Virus record (IMG/VR): IMGVR_UViG_3300014819_000002
Coordinates: 1-64,000 of that record
DNA from: a virus
Reading direction: 5' to 3' (one strand)
Length of the DNA stretch: 64,000 nucleotides
Shown here: positions 27,860-43,213 of the stretch, one piece after another
Numbering within the stretch: the first letter of the stretch is position 1
How the letters are laid out: every line of letters begins with the position of its first letter
Position numbers and translations under genes: made by a program
Notes under the pieces: model-generated
What the model was told of the DNA's origin: nothing
Databases searched by the model: none
The model's input: only the letters and a program-made list of their open reading frames with translations

Positions 27860-27914
27860 TTATTTTTTCTTCCTGTTACTATGTTACTATGTTACGATTA
27901 TGTTAATTATCGTA

Positions 27915-27994
27915 CCTGAGCGGCTGGAATCGAACCAGCATTTTCAGATCCATTTACGGATAAAAGCTTAGAAGGCTTCCTCGTCTACGCCCAG
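27915..27994 (-). tRNA. Atypical D-armless tRNA-Arg(UCU)-like RNA with long variable region
   Basis: CUGGGCG/CGCUCAG acceptor; 8-nt linker instead of D-arm; GAAGC-CUUCUAA-GCUUU anticodon arm; 23-nt variable region with hairpin; GCUGG-UUCGAUU-CCAGC T-arm; promoter at 28015..28043. Confidence 0.7.
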
Positions 27995-28047
27995 ATTATC
28001 TTTAGCTCTATATAAATATAACAAATTTGTTGTTTGATATAAACTAT

Positions 28048-32975: not shown

Positions 32976-33004
32976 ATTATGACATATGCACAATTATTTG
33001 TAAA
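32976..33004 (-). promoter_or_regulatory. Extended -10 promoter, leaderless aceA transcript
   Basis: TTTACA-17 nt-(TGt)CATAAT-6 nt-ATG. Confidence 0.65.
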
Positions 33005-33037
33005 AATAAAAAGCCCGATGCTGTGCACATCGGGCTT
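33002..33037 (-). terminator. Rho-independent terminator ending the tRNA-Asn transcript
   Basis: AAGCCCGATG/CATCGGGCTT 10-bp stem plus U-tract. Confidence 0.85.
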
Positions 33038-33039
33038 AA

Positions 33040-33205
33040 AAAGAGATAGTGTAGTCCTGATATCAAAGGGGCTCGTTCCCTCCATCGGTGTCTACTGCGC
33101 TGCTATCACAACGAGCCTTCCAGGCTTTGGGGCTTTTTTTACGGAAGCTACTCCGCTTCATTCATAAGGAAACCAACCTTATTAGCCATACAGCTTATAT
33201 GACAC
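33040..33205 (-). ncRNA. Candidate structured RNA between tRNA-Asn and terminator
   Basis: Several hairpins and a nested long stem; no credible ORF. Confidence 0.35.
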
Positions 33206-33211
33206 GTCAAA

Positions 33212-33490
33212 CTCCATTTCCTGGACTCGAACCAGGGACCATTCGGTTACTTTGCCACTATAGTTTTCACTACCCTTTCGGTTTGTGGTCTGGACTATAC
33301 CATTACCCTCGTCTTTCTCGTTAGGGTATTGCCCCTCTAGTCTCTACACCTTCCTTTTGGGCTTGGCTCGGGATTGTCATCAGCTTTACCTGTTAAGAGT
33401 TCCCCGAATTTGGGCAATTTTTCATTCATAAATTTCTTAATGAAGCTGCTAACTGACAGCCGAACGCTCTACCAACTGAGCTAAAATGGA
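33212..33490 (-). tRNA. tRNA-Asn(GUU), intron-containing (exons 33456..33490 and 33212..33249)
   Basis: Joined exons give a canonical 73-nt cloverleaf: UCCAUUU/AAAUGGA, GCUC-AGUUGGUA-GAGC, UUCGG-CUGUUAA-CCGAA, CCUGG-UUCGAGU-CCAGG, G73. Confidence 0.93.
33250..33455 (-). mobile_element. Group I intron (IC3-like, 206 nt, no ORF) between tRNA positions 35 and 36
   Basis: P1 GCUGU/GCAGC with U-G at 5' splice site; P AAAUUCGGGGAA, Q AAUCCCGAGC, R GUAGAGACUAG, S GUAUAGUCC; terminal G. Confidence 0.92.
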
Positions 33491-33506
33491 ATACTAATCT
33501 AATAAA

Positions 33507-34070
33507 CTATTTTAAGTTTAACTTTTTTAACCTCTTATGTATAGCAACATCTGAACAACCTAACTTCTCTGCTATTTTTACTATGGATAGTTTTTCCAAC
33601 AACTGAGGTAAATCAACATTGTCCCAATCGATCTTTCTAGCTAATTTACCTCCACATTGAACTGAACATGTTTTTTGTTGTTTTGGTTTTAAACCTTCAC
33701 AAACTAGACATTTATCAAGAAATAAATTATTTCTCTTATAATTTGCATATTCTTCATTAAATGAAGAAATATTTTCTGGTAATGAAATTATATTTTCATG
33801 TATCTCAGTATGACATATATGGCATAATAAAACGCATTTTCTCAATTCTTCTGTGATTTTATTCCAAGATTTAGGATTTGCTCTTACGCCACCTAAACTA
33901 AAATCTTTTTTAGTTGGATCTTTATGGTGCAAAGCTAAGTTTGATAAACAACGATCATATCCGCAAATTTGACACTTGCCACCCATCGATTCAACAATTC
34001 TTTTTTTTGTATTAAATCGCCATAGCTTTACTTTTTCTGATTGTGAAGACAATAATGCACTATCTTTCAT
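33507..34070 (-). CDS. HNH endonuclease with C-terminal zinc finger and HTH
   Basis: CQICGY...LHHKDP...LLCHICHTEIH; C-terminal IAEKLGCSDVAIHKRL. Confidence 0.85.
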   Translation of the reverse strand: MKDSALLSSQSEKVKLWRFNTKKRIVESMGGKCQICGYDRCLSNLALHHKDPTKKDFSLGGVRANPKSWNKITEELRKCVLLCHICHTEIHENIISLPENISSFNEEYANYKRNNLFLDKCLVCEGLKPKQQKTCSVQCGGKLARKIDWDNVDLPQLLEKLSIVKIAEKLGCSDVAIHKRLKKLNLK

Positions 34071-34219
34071 GTGTTAAGATATACGGAGTCACAGCAAATA
34101 TTATATATCAGTTAGAAGAAAACATATTTGGATTACCAATTATCCTATCTGCCAATATAAACCCAGCATATCATATATCGCACATATTTTATACTGAGTT
34201 CATAAAAATGATAGTTACG

Positions 34220-34556
34220 AGATCCCTCTAAACATAAGAAGTGGATTTTGCTCGCTTAACGCTACTATCTGCGTTCTCTTTCCCGAGAAGGGGCTTTTTC
34301 TCCCATTTATATCATGAAAGGAATGTCATAACTTTAGTGGGCAATTCAGGTCGCTTCTGAACCTCCTTAATCATCATGTTAAGGATAACATTATATAACC
34401 GACTTGCATATATATGCTTTTCTTTATAACCTATTTTGATTATCCATTAATTTCTGGATAATGGTAATAAATACTTACGGTTCCTTTTATCCCATATATA
34501 TCGAACCTTTATTTAAATGATGACCGGTTCATTAATCGTAGGGATAGAATCTTTCT
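34220..34556 (-). ncRNA. Candidate large structured ncRNA (about 335 nt)
   Basis: ORF-free region downstream of tRNA-Ala with about eight stems and complementary ends. Confidence 0.5.
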
Positions 34557-34569
34557 CTGTTTTCAATAT

Positions 34570-34645
34570 TGGACCTTGTGGGTAATGCTCCCACCTGAGC
34601 TTCTGTGTGCAAAACAGACGACCACCCTATGCAGTCCCAAGGCCC
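34570..34645 (-). tRNA. tRNA-Ala(UGC) with atypical T-loop
   Basis: GGGCCUU/AAGGUCC with G3-U70, A73; UCUGU-UUUGCAC-ACAGA; GUGGG-AGCAUUA-CCCAC. Confidence 0.85.
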
Positions 34646-34690
34646 AATATCTCAATGATATATCAGATATATTTTTATGTTTAAACTAAA

Positions 34691-34768
34691 TTAACCTATG
34701 AAGTAAGCAGTAGCGACGGTAACAAAAAATGCAACACCAACAATAATCATCATTGATCGATCTTCCAT
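34691..34768 (-). CDS. 25-aa single-pass membrane peptide
   Basis: MEDRSMMIIVGVAFFVTVATAYFIG with GAGGAG SD. Confidence 0.5.
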   Translation of the reverse strand: MEDRSMMIIVGVAFFVTVATAYFIG

Positions 34769-34778
34769 AGATATCTCC

Positions 34779-35597
34779 TCATTTCTTATTTTCAATTACT
34801 TTTTTAGTCTTGGCACCACCAGGAATACGAGTCTTATCATTAAGACGACGCAAATTACGATTATGTACATTTCTTAGCGTATAGAAAGTGTTCTCTGCTT
34901 CACTAAAAAGCTTATTTGCTTCCATTGCAGAAGAAATGTTACCAATACGATTACGGAATGTCTCCAGTTTTGCAGTCAAAGAACTAATCGCCATTGCGAT
35001 ATCCATAATGGCTTGAGTCTTTTCTGCTTTTCGAGCGGCAACATAATCATTAATGCTATCTACATCGAGAGATCTCTTCAACTCTGCCACTTTACGACGC
35101 TTTAGTTCAAGCCATGCATTTGCATATTGTTGCTTAAGTATCTTAAGCAATTTCATATGCCGTTCATTACAATTCCATCGATTAGCATCGGCTCTTAACC
35201 ATATCTCGATAGGTCTAATAGCATAATTATTACCATGAGGCGAATATGGTATCGCTGGCTTTTGAATATCAGTTAAAAGCTCAGAATTTGCAGCATCTAC
35301 TGCATACTTGACCATATATTGATGCGTTATATTATCTTTGAAAAAATAAAGAGGCTTGGCAGGTATACCACTTTCATCAAAAACATGATTAAATACAATA
35401 TTCTGACAATATTGGTCTTCAATCAAATTGTTAAATCCATAAGAATTATATGAATAATAATTCTTATAACGAAATTTGTTGAGAGTGTCAATCTTTTCAA
35501 GAGTTGTTTTATTACTGAACTTTGAGCTATTAATGAGTTCGTCTAACGTTTTAGAACGTTCAATAACAAAAGGCAATATATTCTTTTTGCGGGCCAT
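34779..35597 (-). CDS. Hypothetical protein
   Basis: 272-aa ORF. Confidence 0.55.
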   Translation of the reverse strand: MARKKNILPFVIERSKTLDELINSSKFSNKTTLEKIDTLNKFRYKNYYSYNSYGFNNLIEDQYCQNIVFNHVFDESGIPAKPLYFFKDNITHQYMVKYAVDAANSELLTDIQKPAIPYSPHGNNYAIRPIEIWLRADANRWNCNERHMKLLKILKQQYANAWLELKRRKVAELKRSLDVDSINDYVAARKAEKTQAIMDIAMAISSLTAKLETFRNRIGNISSAMEANKLFSEAENTFYTLRNVHNRNLRRLNDKTRIPGGAKTKKVIENKK

Positions 35598-38398: not shown

Positions 38399-38464
38399 AT
38401 GTTCATGATATCACATATAAGAAATATTTCAAGTAATATAATTTATCCAGAATTATTGTTAAAT

Positions 38465-38827
38465 TGGAGATGTGCGGTACTGCCCCGCAGTCTCAAGAGT
38501 ATTCAATTAATTTGTTGTCACATAGTATAGCTCTTTAATAAATTACCCATCATAAGCTTAACCAAAGAGCAGGTTGTATATGATATGGTTCCAATGTTTA
38601 AACTTTGGCAGTAGGAACTATCCTTACAAAGTCGAGTTTGTTTTATGACAATCTTAATCAATCCTCAAACGGCGTATCAACTAGATTGCTTACTGTCAAG
38701 CAGCAAGAGCGTAAGAGCTATAGGAACTATCGTTTGCACTTACTTTTGTTTACGGTTTTAAACGGTCATAAACGCCCGTTACTATGCAAATTAATTTTCA
38801 AATCCTGATCGAATCTATTTCATCCCC
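38465..38827 (-). ncRNA. ssrA: tmRNA, one-piece, 363 nt; tag ANDSSYSSYALAA (38696..38737)
   Basis: 5' GGGGAUG pairs with 3' CAUCUCC-A with G3-U70; GAUUCGA after 5' end; resume context AAGU-GCA-AAC-GAU; tag ends ALAA-stop; T-arm UGCGG-GGCAGUA-CCGCA. Confidence 0.93.
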
Positions 38828-39211: not shown

Positions 39212-39664
39212 CTATGACAGAAGTCTAAAAGCTTTTATCCTTCTATAAAATGTTTTTATTTTCCGAATTAAACGTTTCCACCACCATCCCGGTTTACGTT
39301 TATAACCGTCTTTTTTTTCATGACATGGTACACAAAGAGGTTGAACGTTTTTAGCATCATTAATCCCACCTTGATTCAAAGGAATAATATGATCTAAAGT
39401 AAGTCTATGTCGTCCTCGTATTCCACAATGAGCACATGACCAATTATGAGTATATAAAACGTTAATCCACGAGCGAACAGAAATTCGACTCGTGGAATAT
39501 TTGCGACTTCTTTTACTTTTATTATTTGATCTTAATCGATTTCGCTCTGCTTGCCAACATGAACGACATATCATAGCATAATTTGATGGCGCTTTAAGAG
39601 TTCGCCGCAAATCGCTAAAACATAGCTTACATGTGTATTTTTCGTTTCTAAAATGATGTAACAT
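39212..39664 (-). CDS. HNH endonuclease
   Basis: CAHCG...LTLDHIIPLNQGG.N...NVQPLCVPCHEKK. Confidence 0.85.
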   Translation of the reverse strand: MLHHFRNEKYTCKLCFSDLRRTLKAPSNYAMICRSCWQAERNRLRSNNKSKRSRKYSTSRISVRSWINVLYTHNWSCAHCGIRGRHRLTLDHIIPLNQGGINDAKNVQPLCVPCHEKKDGYKRKPGWWWKRLIRKIKTFYRRIKAFRLLS

Positions 39665-40168: not shown

Positions 40169-43100
40169 CTATTCAAGCAACCATTTCCAACGCTTCCAAT
40201 ATGCATTTCTGAAATCTTGACCTACACCACCATGCTTGGCTGCGTCTTGACGATTTTGTATATCTTGAATTTGAGCATATTCTTTAATACCATCACTAGT
40301 AATGATTGGTGGCATATATTTGTTTTGCTCACCAAATTGATTCCCCATGTTATTCATAGTTGAAGTTGTTTTACTCATACCAGCTATCATTGCCATTGTC
40401 ACAGCTTTGTCATCCCAGGCATTAACACCAGCAGCTTCATATAGAGAATTACCAATAGCTAAAGCTATAATCAAATCGTCGTTATAGCTTTTCATAGCTT
40501 GGGCTTTATTATTCTTCCATATAAAGGTCTTAAACTCTTCTACGGTTCTGGATGAATATATTTTCATTCTACGTGTTCGGATAACAGTTTCAAGTTTAGC
40601 TAAGATTTCATCACGGTTTTTTGGACCGGTAGTAAACCCAGGCAAATCATTTGCAATGTCTGCCGTTGTATATGACATATAAGCATTACTACGATGAATA
40701 CGCTCATAATAAATGTTTGGATATTGCGCTTTCTTAATATCGGTTGCTACGATAAGACCGAATGAGTTAAGTTCTGGGCATAAGAGGGCTTGATTGTATT
40801 TAAAGCCTAAGTCCATCATTAACTCGGCTAGCCTTTCCGGTGGGCATTTACCTTGATATTCACATACAACTTCATCGGCATTAGTATCTATAACATGAAG
40901 GGTTGAATAGTCGTCGGCATCACCACGACTTACATCTCCGCTGATTATATATTTGTGATTTGGTTCTGCATATTTCCAAATCCATACATCGCCTCTATCT
41001 CCATAGGTGGCTATAGGTTGTTTTATTTGCCTCTCCATATCTTCTATAACGTCAGCAGATAGGAAGTTCTCACCGGAGGCGGCGAATTTGCATAATAGCT
41101 CCTGAGCTATTCCACGTTCACCTTTGGCTGGTAAAATCTCTGCTCTCTGAGCTTCATACCAAGCTTGATCTCTCTCCGGATGAACCGTCCATGGGAGTTC
41201 TATGCGATAGAAATTATTATTGCCCTTGCCAGGATTTGAATTGCCTTCTCCATCCTCGCCTTCTTTAGCGCCGACCCAAATCTTATGAAACAAAGTTCCA
41301 ACTCCACTCGGAGAACTTATTAAAATAGCATTTCCACCAGTGTTTGAACCTAAAATACCGTTCTGTAGAAAGGTGTGACTGCGTGGGACTGTGAAATCAT
41401 AAGTTTTTGCCTTTCCAGATTCGGTTTCTACTACCGCATCCCAAAAAAAATTACCAATTATATTGTCAAAAAATTCTGTAACGCCGGTATCAAGCAACAA
41501 TGATGGATTTGCTAAATAAACAAGATATTTGAATTTACACAACCAACTGTTACTAACAGAACGATTATGATCGTTGCCTTGCAACAAGGTTGTTTTTAAA
41601 CCATTTTGATGAAACCACCATTTTGATTTCCCAGTCTTTTGAATGATTTCGTTTAAAGGTTTACGTATAGGTAATATTGGACAACGATTTAAATCACTAT
41701 CTTTTCTATTTTCTACCGAAAGCATTTGCTTTTGTTTTCTTTGAATTCTAAATCCAATTTCTTTAGCAAATTTCATAGATTCACTCTTTGGAATCTCTAA
41801 AACCCAAGTGGTTCTTGCAGATTTAGTATTTGTTAAATTACTACGTGCTGTTTTCTTATTAACATTAGGATGAAATCCCATGTTCAAAAGTAAGAGCTGC
41901 ACATCTTTAATCATTTGCTCAGATGTTAATTCAATTTTTGCAATACCCTTGTAGGCAGTACCATCTCCGTCAAATAATCCAGATAAGTAATTTTGCTGAG
42001 TTTGCTTATTAGCTGTCCATATAATCTTAGGAACGGTTTTATTGTAAGATAATTCGTTAATATTAAGCCCAAGATTTTGTAATTTTTTTACAACAGCAAC
42101 AGAATATAATGTTAAATGGTGTTTTCCGTATGCATGAAAATTTTTTCCAAATATAGTATGTTTTGCCCTATTCAAATAAACATCTCTAAATTCAGAATCT
42201 GAATTGGTAATTTGTATACCGCAATATTCTACTCTGCCAAAACGATTTCTTTTTCGTTTTTTTATACAGCCTTCAGCAGAATATCCTCCCAACATATAAG
42301 CCAAATCAGGATTTAATTTCTTATCACCATAGCAGTTCATACCAACTTGTATTCTAAGATAATCTCCTGGCTTTATATTCTGTATTTGTTTCATAGAGCC
42401 GCCAGCAGCATCAAGAACCCACAAAGGATGCTTGAGCGTTCCTTCAACATTATATCCATGCTTGGTTGTTAATTTGATTGTATCGCTTTCTGGAGATACA
42501 TAACCATGAGACAGCGGTTCAAGACCATTTTTTCCATAAACTTGCCATCCATCAATTTCAAAATATTCTCCAATAGAACGACCTTTATGAAAATCTTCAA
42601 TTGCAAATATTCCCTTGTCGGTAAAAACTTTTGTGTTGCCGACAAGACAAGATAAGGTAGGCCACAAACCAAGCCACAATTCATCAATACCATCAACGTG
42701 GGCAGCTTCGTCAATGATTAATAAAGATAGAGCTTCAGAACGACCAGCATCGGTGCCAGTAGGAACGGCTTGAACCTTTGAACCATTAGAGAACTCAAGG
42801 TATCTAACAGAACGTGCTTTAATCTGAGGCATGACAAGCCACTTTGGCAAGTTGTCATACATTCCGTTAACCTTCTTAATGAAGTTCTTTGCAACTTCAA
42901 GACGGGTAGCGATAACAAGAATATTTTTTTCACGCTGGAATAAAGCCATCCAAAGAGAATAGGCGGCAGATAGGGTAGATAAACCTAACTGACGACTTTT
43001 GTTTGTAATGACGAAACGATGTTTTTGGAAGGCAGTTAAACACTTATCCTGATATGGGAAGGTTTCAAATGGAATTGGACCCTTAACTGGATGGGAGATT

Positions 43101-43213
43101 TTAACGTATTTAGAAATGAAATAGGATGCATCTGTTCCGCAGCGCATGATTTCTTTCATTTGTGCGGCACGATTTGGAACTGTTCCTAATGTTAGATTTT
43201 TTTTAGCAGGCAT
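40169..43213 (-). CDS. Terminase large subunit, T4 gp17-like, with intein
   Basis: KSRQLGLST, GRSEALSLLIIDEAAH, ISSPSG, ISGDVSRG..DDYST, YNDDLIIAL. Confidence 0.95.
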   Translation of the reverse strand: MPAKKNLTLGTVPNRAAQMKEIMRCGTDASYFISKYVKISHPVKGPIPFETFPYQDKCLTAFQKHRFVITNKSRQLGLSTLSAAYSLWMALFQREKNILVIATRLEVAKNFIKKVNGMYDNLPKWLVMPQIKARSVRYLEFSNGSKVQAVPTGTDAGRSEALSLLIIDEAAHVDGIDELWLGLWPTLSCLVGNTKVFTDKGIFAIEDFHKGRSIGEYFEIDGWQVYGKNGLEPLSHGYVSPESDTIKLTTKHGYNVEGTLKHPLWVLDAAGGSMKQIQNIKPGDYLRIQVGMNCYGDKKLNPDLAYMLGGYSAEGCIKKRKRNRFGRVEYCGIQITNSDSEFRDVYLNRAKHTIFGKNFHAYGKHHLTLYSVAVVKKLQNLGLNINELSYNKTVPKIIWTANKQTQQNYLSGLFDGDGTAYKGIAKIELTSEQMIKDVQLLLLNMGFHPNVNKKTARSNLTNTKSARTTWVLEIPKSESMKFAKEIGFRIQRKQKQMLSVENRKDSDLNRCPILPIRKPLNEIIQKTGKSKWWFHQNGLKTTLLQGNDHNRSVSNSWLCKFKYLVYLANPSLLLDTGVTEFFDNIIGNFFWDAVVETESGKAKTYDFTVPRSHTFLQNGILGSNTGGNAILISSPSGVGTLFHKIWVGAKEGEDGEGNSNPGKGNNNFYRIELPWTVHPERDQAWYEAQRAEILPAKGERGIAQELLCKFAASGENFLSADVIEDMERQIKQPIATYGDRGDVWIWKYAEPNHKYIISGDVSRGDADDYSTLHVIDTNADEVVCEYQGKCPPERLAELMMDLGFKYNQALLCPELNSFGLIVATDIKKAQYPNIYYERIHRSNAYMSYTTADIANDLPGFTTGPKNRDEILAKLETVIRTRRMKIYSSRTVEEFKTFIWKNNKAQAMKSYNDDLIIALAIGNSLYEAAGVNAWDDKAVTMAMIAGMSKTTSTMNNMGNQFGEQNKYMPPIITSDGIKEYAQIQDIQNRQDAAKHGGVGQDFRNAYWKRWKWLLE
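41342..42649 (-). mobile_element. Terminase intein (436 aa), LAGLIDADG type
   Basis: PTLS|CLVGNTKV...TYDFTVPRSHTFLQNGILGSN|TGG; internal YMLGGYSAEG and YLSGLFDGDG. Confidence 0.9.

Follow-up and report, generated by a model that had tools for sequence, protein, structure and literature searches.

Two families of large structured RNA, ROOL and GOLLD, are encoded by phages near tRNA islands and form RNA-only cages (10.1101/2024.12.08.627333). ROOL (rumen-originating, ornate, large) is a multi-pseudoknotted RNA carried by phages and prophages, for which neither a protein partner nor a function is known (10.1101/2024.12.08.627333). GOLLD is phage-encoded, often lies beside tRNA genes, occurs in lake metagenomes and carries covarying long-range pairings; its members often exceed 800 nt and its function is also unknown (10.1101/2024.12.08.627333). 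Once the structures of both had been solved, covarying pairs regarded as tertiary proved to be kissing loops between chains (10.1101/2024.12.08.627333). Another precedent comes from phage T4, where RNAC and RNAD, stable RNAs of unknown role, are encoded and transcribed within the tRNA cluster (PMC3014915).

The window analyzed here, i.e., the whole stretch of 64,000 nt taken from the IMG/VR record IMGVR_UViG_3300014819_000002 (positions 1 to 64,000), contains an island of tRNA and tmRNA genes with a further RNA inside it on the same strand, and the neighboring genes all lie on the minus strand. The virus contig of the record measures 103 kb at 34.8% G+C; CheckV estimates it to be about 25% complete, so the phage from which it derives is probably very large. 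A first-pass annotation had marked positions 34220-34556, between a tRNA-Ala and an HNH gene, as a highly structured orphan RNA. We consider it rather probable that 34546-34209 on the minus strand encodes a stable RNA of about 340 nt that is non-coding, acts in trans and belongs to no described family (Table 1). The central proposal, that a large non-coding RNA with extensive structure lies next to the phage tRNAs, was borne out by homologues and covariation. The limits first assigned were nearly right, except that the 3' end at 34220 falls 11 nt too early, truncating the 3' strand of P9 and omitting the conserved CUAUCA tail. As had been noted, the minus strand has no ORF of at least 30 aa within 34220-34556, and every one of the complementary strings originally listed was found on that strand. 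Whole-RNA matching with an nhmmer profile gave an envelope of 34554-34206 (E 9.6e-80), the sole match within the 103-kb record, i.e., the RNA is single-copy.

Table 1. Coordinates in the window of the structured RNA, its parts and the neighboring features.
Feature	Position	Strand	Basis or remark
ORF, 272 aa, family unassigned	35597-34779	minus	
Sigma-70-like promoter before the tRNA-Ala/RNA/tRNA-Asn unit	34683-34655	minus	TAAACA-17-TATCAT, 9/12 consensus positions
tRNA-Ala(UGC)-like gene	34645-34570	minus	cloverleaf drawn by eye; position
Structured RNA, P1 to CUAUCA tail, ~338 nt	34546-34209	minus	nhmmer, 11 homologous loci, pair counts
P1 domain; loop with invariant UCAUC	34546-34488	minus	covariation
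P1 outer stem UAUCC/GGAUA	34546-34542 with 34492-34488	minus	
P1 inner stem GAACC/GGUUC	34531-34526 with 34507-34502	minus	
J1/2: AAAGGAA (PK1 5' strand), then invariant CCGUAAGUA	34487-34472	minus	
Pseudoknot PK1: J1/2 with P6 loop	34487-34481 with 34323-34317	minus	
P2, long hairpin, variable length	34471-34422	minus	
P3, short hairpin, often GNRA loop	34417-34406	minus	
P4 (loop NRUGAUGA) and P5 (loop A-N-GCGAC)	34384-34343	minus	
P6 hairpin; loop UUCCUUU = PK1 3' strand	34331-34312	minus	
Invariant 23-nt core AAAGCCCCUUCUCGGGAAAGAGA	34297-34275	minus	
P8 (AACGC/GCGUU, loop AGAUAGNA), P9 (GCGAG/CUCGU), CUAUCA tail	34275-34209	minus	
Accessory 3' hairpin, then UUUAUAUU	34204-34157	minus	10/12 loci
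tRNA-Asn stump, first 26 nt of former resident gene	34154-34129	minus	identical to L021 gene 5' end
HNH homing-type endonuclease gene, 187 aa	34070-33507	minus	phrog_35854, 2.9e-32
tRNA-Asn(GUU) split by 206-nt group I intron (33455-33250)	33491-33211	minus	Rfam Intron_gpI, 66.9 bits, E 1.5e-15
Strong terminator, 11 pairs	33037-33011	minus	only strong one downstream on minus strand, beyond tRNA-Asn
Isocitrate lyase gene	32993-31704	minus	Pfam ICL, 1.6e-106

The first four homologous loci were found by searching IMG/VR with the 272-aa protein encoded upstream; they share 79-91% DNA identity with positions 34395-34145 of the window, while their flanking genes share 65-80%. Further loci were obtained by scanning IMG/VR, JGI metagenomes and GTDB genomes with patterns of the conserved core and of gapped motifs. 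After removal of duplicates and chance matches, 12 distinct copies remained from IMG/VR and metagenome contigs, namely those of the window, L001, L002, L003, L004, L015, L016, L017, L018, L019, L021 and the divergent L023. The extra pattern matches L020, L022 and L024-L036 were rejected as chance, being coding or GC-rich, and nhmmer matches nothing in them beyond the motif. A search of 185,579 prokaryote species genomes returned neither the core nor the motif combination. In megablast and blastn comparisons with 50,697 phage records, only the HNH gene and the group I intron gave matches. The absence of any match over the element, by blastn with positions 33000-34800 of the window, argues against close similarity to the deposited phages, T4 included. 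The carriers of the RNA are one small group of uncultured large freshwater phages. In all 12 loci a tRNA-Asn(GUU) gene or its 5' stump lies directly downstream of the RNA, tRNA-Ala(UGC) lies just upstream in 11 of them (the exception is L023), and tmRNA and other tRNAs are nearby in all the longer loci that reach far enough. The neighborhood also includes a gene for a SpoU-type RNA methylase and, between the 272-aa ORF and the promoter-like site, a 34-aa ORF on the minus strand. No genes for TROVE/Ro, reverse transcriptase or SmpB were found in the 103-kb fragment, which is weak evidence given that the record is about 25% complete.

Comparison with Rfam by cmscan, a check suggested in the first-pass annotation, excluded GOLLD, ROOL, HEARO and RNase P RNA. 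All 4227 families of Rfam 15, applied with lax filters and E up to 10 to 541 nt, gave only three chance snoRNA matches, far below threshold, and scans of 11 kb at E up to 1 and of the whole window at gathering thresholds returned no match to the element. It had been suggested that the RNA might be a short member of one of these families or a new class; the former was not upheld and the latter was, since no Rfam 15 family matches. For GOLLD no model match was obtained at any threshold, and a phage location near tRNAs, which the RNA does have, also characterizes other families and is insufficient for membership. The ROOL covariance model was also unmatched, as was that of HEARO (IscB omega-RNA), and the RNA has no constant adjacency to an IscB-type (RuvC plus HNH) gene. 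Bacterial RNase P RNA of types A and B, whose models encode the conserved P4 core, gave no match at E up to 10. For tmRNA, characterized by tRNA-like ends together with a tag reading frame, the model (RF00023) did not match the element, the tmRNA of the phage being a separate gene, and the only match of the group I intron model (RF00028, P3-P9 core) in the region was at 33269-33465, inside tRNA-Asn. As judged by the Rfam 15 models, the RNA is set apart from every described family.

Folding energy alone is weak, and the case is therefore made by comparative evidence. The minus strand folds at -71.1 kcal/mol, compared to -63.5 +/- 4.2 for shuffles (z -1.81; 5 of 100 shuffles were as good), so that with respect to shuffled controls, one of the comparisons called for in the first-pass annotation, it is barely better; the plus strand reaches a z of -2.87, slightly better than the minus. 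RNAalifold, applied to 11 sequences, independently predicted 80 pairs, of which 24 had compensatory changes. Seven secondary helices and three tertiary pairings (56 pairs) were then combined into one structure and evaluated on a MAFFT alignment of the 12 sequences (A3), against shuffles and against a control in which pairing partners were slid by 1-3 columns. Standard pairs were present in 96.9% of 668 cells, a count inflated by shared ancestry as the 12 sequences represent, by eye, about six lineages, compared to 87.7 +/- 0.7% in shuffles (reached by 0 of 500) and to 32-47% with slid partners, over which the structure has the advantage of having been drawn partly from the same sequences. Changes on both sides were observed in 22 of the 56 pairs (shuffles 10.0 +/- 1.9, reached by 0 of 500; slid 4-7), and the covariation score was 0.294 versus 0.118 in shuffles. 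The compensatory changes support an RNA of at least nine helices in which J1/2 and the P6 loop form a pseudoknot. For the other two tertiary pairings, which are invariant, covariation gives no signal. G-U pairs were found at 327/369 in all 12 sequences, at 34/61 in 10, and at 47/206 and 84/259 in 8 each; as these would be C-A mismatches on the plus strand, they assign the RNA to the minus strand, the same as that of the tRNAs.

Six of the stems listed in the first-pass annotation were kept as helices (UAUCC/GGAUA, GAACC/GGUUC, UCCUUAA/UUAAGGA, UUCAG/CUGAA, AACGC/GCGUU and the window-specific tip of P2), each with compensatory changes in at least one pair among the homologues. The UUCUC-GGGAAA-GAGAA stem sits within the invariant core, so covariation gives no signal either way, and the proposed end-to-end pairing of AGAUUCU with GGGAUCU, which overlaps P9 and has by eye no counterpart in L002, was not counted as supported.

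Among the parts of the RNA, PK1 is the strongest single structural feature: six of its seven pairs change on both sides, 98.8% of its cells pair, and it occurs in three sequence versions (AAGGAG:UUCCUU, UCAAUCG:UGGUUGA and AAGAAAG:CUUUCUU). The outer stem of P1 is closed by U-A, G-U, C-G or A-U with all cells paired, and the inner stem varies as GC/AU and CG/UA. P4 shows both-side changes in four of six pairs (100% of cells paired), P5 in three of six (97.2%) and P6 in four of five. P2 and P3 were too variable for MAFFT to align; independent single-sequence folds recovered both in 10 of the 12 copies despite their differing sequences, and in the P2 of L017 every C-to-U change retains a G-U pair (alignment, by eye). 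P8 reads AUCGU/ACGAU in L023, and P9 alternates between G-C and A-U, with six sequences each. The 23-nt core is identical in all 12 sequences, the most divergent L023 included. Two further complementarities, both perfect, occur throughout the 12 copies. The UGAUGA of the P4 loop can pair with UCAUC(A/G) of the P1 loop, invariant except for an alternation of A-U and G-U, and is a candidate kissing loop; the GAUAG of the P8 loop is complementary to CUAUC of the tail, with both strands invariant. The hairpin that follows the tail, which we treated as accessory to the RNA, shows one-sided and compensatory changes among its 10 loci. L001 and L018 lack it, and there a gap of about 3 nt separates the tail of the RNA from tRNA-Asn.

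Another conserved and structured non-coding stretch was observed at 33205-33040 on the minus strand, between tRNA-Asn and the terminator, with no Rfam match. It is 81-99% identical in eight related loci, is absent from L002 (a 12.8-kb locus with the main RNA), and has the motif AAAGCCCC in common with the core of the main RNA. That the two might be halves of one larger RNA was rejected, as L002 lacks the second stretch and the complementarity drawn by eye is lost in L001.

The HNH gene had been put forward as a possible partner of the RNA, a proposal that fails on the distribution of the gene. Beside the RNA, 7 of the 12 loci (L001, L003, L004, L015, L018, L019 and L021) lack it, and L023 retains no more than a 36-aa remnant. 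Of the seven, L021 is a sister contig in which every flanking protein is 98-100% identical to that of the window, and it carries neither the HNH gene nor the intron. Instead, an intact intron-less tRNA-Asn (L021:10308-10380) comes directly after the 3' hairpin. In the window, the stump is followed by the HNH cassette and then by a different tRNA-Asn with an intron, which ARAGORN calls as a split gene with a 206-nt intron and also as joined exons. The intact gene of L021 and the stump of the window indicate a recent arrival of the HNH gene together with the intron-bearing tRNA-Asn, as one mobile unit that targets tRNA-Asn and has no relation to the RNA. The cassette and the new tRNA-Asn took the place of the last two-thirds (3' part) of the resident gene, as endonuclease-driven gene conversion would predict. 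In L002, L016 and L017 a different HNH gene is inserted in a similar way after a shorter tRNA-Asn stump; these proteins are 39-46% identical to that of the window over their N-terminal halves only, which suggests that the two sets of insertions are independent.

The group I intron lies in the anticodon loop of tRNA-Asn, and among the 12 loci the window alone has it. Over 44-125 nt, parts of it resemble, at 73-93% identity, DNA of a crAss-like phage, of jumbo phages of Escherichia and Klebsiella and of uncultured phages with 735-kb records. The tRNA-Asn of L004 has an insert of about 48 nt at the same anticodon-loop position, which can form a hairpin, does not match Intron_gpI and may be a mini-intron or a remnant of one. 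The tRNA-Asn genes of L002 (7821-7941), L004 (7396-7516) and L016 (1008-1128) were all scored over 121 nt, and this equal span suggests that L002 and L016 carry the same insert as L004.

Other observations concern the wider region. Selfish elements are abundant in it: in addition to the group I intron and the tRNA-targeting HNH gene, the large terminase ORF (1014 aa, 40169-43213, minus strand) contains an intein with a LAGLIDADG endonuclease domain, and another HNH gene lies at 39212-39664. The tmRNA gene is in one piece (38464-38827, minus strand; Rfam 76 bits) and was overlooked by ARAGORN, which read the tag ANDSSYALAA in L001 and L002. ARAGORN also called a tRNA-like gene with a four-base anticodon (ttta) at 27914-27995 on the minus strand, just over the Rfam threshold at 32.3 bits and conserved in L023 (7560-7641). 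The closest named cellular homologues of the isocitrate lyase belong to Bacteroidota (Chitinophagaceae, Sediminibacterium, Hydrotalea and Pedobacter, 77-80% identity), which hints at a host in this phylum, and about 35 phage-like isocitrate lyases, 88-96% identical, were found on contigs of up to 212 kb.

With respect to synthesis, the RNA would be transcribed together with the flanking tRNAs as one precursor, from the sigma-70-like promoter upstream of tRNA-Ala. By eye, relatives have TTTACA-17-TATATT at the same place in the alignment; both are matches to the consensus only. In L023, which has no adjacent tRNA-Ala, a promoter-like TTTACA-17-TATATA is seen by eye about 50 nt upstream of the RNA copy, from which the RNA would be transcribed on its own. 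The tRNA-Ala-like gene of the window has the G3:U70 pair but also an aberrant T-loop (AGCAUUA), a G in position 8 and a variable loop of 7 nt, and was called neither by ARAGORN, also when given the stretch alone, nor by Rfam at E up to 1. Seven relatives (L001-L004, L016, L018 and L019) have a canonical tRNA-Ala(UGC) at the same position; L021 has the aberrant version of the window, and ARAGORN overlooks that copy too. By analogy with RNAC and RNAD of the T4 tRNA region, the RNA would be released when RNase P cleaves tRNA-Asn at its 5' end and tRNA-Ala is processed at its 3' end. The released RNA would act in trans as a compact fold, in an RNA-only assembly or with a protein, and not as a regulator in cis. 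Its size, knotted fold and invariant core favor an RNA machine or scaffold acting in trans over a spacer.

The role of a spacer nevertheless deserves attention, since the RNA comes directly before tRNA-Asn or its 5' fragment in all 12 loci, including L023 without an adjacent tRNA-Ala, and the gap is only about 3 nt in L001 and L018. The element might then be a part of the tRNA precursor that controls in cis the processing, stability or expression of tRNA-Asn and has no role after cleavage. However, a length of about 340 nt, nine helices, a pseudoknot that covaries and an invariant core of 23 nt far exceed what any known tRNA spacer needs. Moreover, in the window, L002, L016 and L017, where an inserted HNH gene has put 0.4-0.9 kb between the RNA and the working tRNA-Asn, the RNA is as well conserved as in the neighbors without HNH; we consider a role as a spacer improbable. 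Large pseudoknotted RNAs of bacteria and phages with invariant cores are often catalytic, as in RNase P RNA and the group I and group II introns, and the present RNA has the traits of that class. It is located in a tRNA and tmRNA island, and its core is identical across loci whose neighboring DNA is only 65-80% identical. The core and the pseudoknotted fold could thus form the active site of a ribozyme for, e.g., cleavage, ligation or repair of tRNA-like substrates. On the other hand, the ribozyme families of Rfam were unmatched even at E up to 10, no substrate or cleavage site can be named, and a binding site for a protein or the ribosome would be equally invariant; we give a ribozyme the same small chance as a cis-acting spacer. 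Host anticodon nucleases can be offset by phage tRNA sets, and the setting among phage tRNAs, tmRNA and the SpoU-type methylase gene is what speaks for a decoy or sponge of a host factor, such as a tRNA-targeting defence nuclease or an RNA-binding protein. As the RNA has no repeated binding motif and no internal tRNA-like module, and no host factor has been identified, the chance of this is smaller still.

It could also be argued that the element is not an RNA gene at all but a DNA element (a promoter cluster, an origin or a packaging site) or what is left of a decaying gene or intron. Promoter-like hexamers lie inside P2 (34467-34439), the core (34276-34293) can be drawn as a terminator-like hairpin when read on the plus strand, and the plus strand has the slightly better folding energy. 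A promoter scan, however, yielded 19 sites versus 15.8 +/- 4.5 in shuffles, i.e., no excess; the 22 pairs with compensatory changes, the wobble pairs that fit the minus strand only and the common strand of the neighboring genes all argue for a transcribed RNA, and a decaying remnant would keep neither an invariant core nor a covarying pseudoknot. This reading has very little in its favor. The least credible is that the RNA guides or assists the adjacent nuclease in the manner of HEARO or omega-RNA, for which one may cite its position 139 nt upstream of a same-strand HNH gene in the window. Apart from the absence of that gene from most loci, its remnant in L023 and the apparently independent insertions elsewhere, the 187-aa protein gives only weak HTH matches in Pfam (E up to 0.01), the HEARO model is unmatched, and the 26-nt tRNA-Asn stump stands between the RNA and the HNH cassette. 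We therefore prefer a stable trans-acting RNA over the alternatives.

Few large RNAs of bacteria or phages have this much conserved tertiary structure, and those described later proved to be ribozymes, ribonucleoprotein cores or, recently, RNA-only cages. The finding indicates that these uncultured large freshwater phages possess, besides tRNAs and tmRNA, a conserved RNA gene overlooked by gene callers and Rfam. Its likeness to HEARO and IscB omega-RNA is that of a structured RNA of a few hundred nucleotides adjoining an HNH-domain gene; it differs in that the model is unmatched and that the HNH protein here is small, free-standing, of the homing type and missing from most RNA loci. As for the proposed route of synthesis, the closest precedent is T4 RNAC and RNAD (species 1 and 2 RNAs), which also lie within a phage tRNA cluster and with which our RNA would share co-transcription. 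Those RNAs are much shorter, and the present phage need not be T4-like.

By niche and complexity, the nearest analogues are ROOL and GOLLD. ROOL has the same tRNA-island niche and general complexity; it is markedly longer than the present RNA of about 340 nt, its Rfam model does not match, and our RNA has been seen in one freshwater phage clade only (12 loci). GOLLD is likewise phage-encoded, has tRNA neighbors, occurs in lake metagenomes and contains covarying long-range pairings, whereas the present RNA is under half its size and unmatched by its model. On this analogy, one may speculate, with considerable reserve, that the RNA is a compact third member of the ROOL/GOLLD functional kind, a self-assembling RNA-only multimer, or else a new ribozyme acting on tRNA-like substrates. 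In the case of a multimer, the pairing of the P1 and P4 loops, and perhaps that of J1/2 with P6, would be bridges between chains. In any case, a new family in the niche of ROOL and GOLLD that measures about 340 nt is easier to probe, mutate and image, and such a short independent example could help to reveal what the RNAs of tRNA islands do for the phage.
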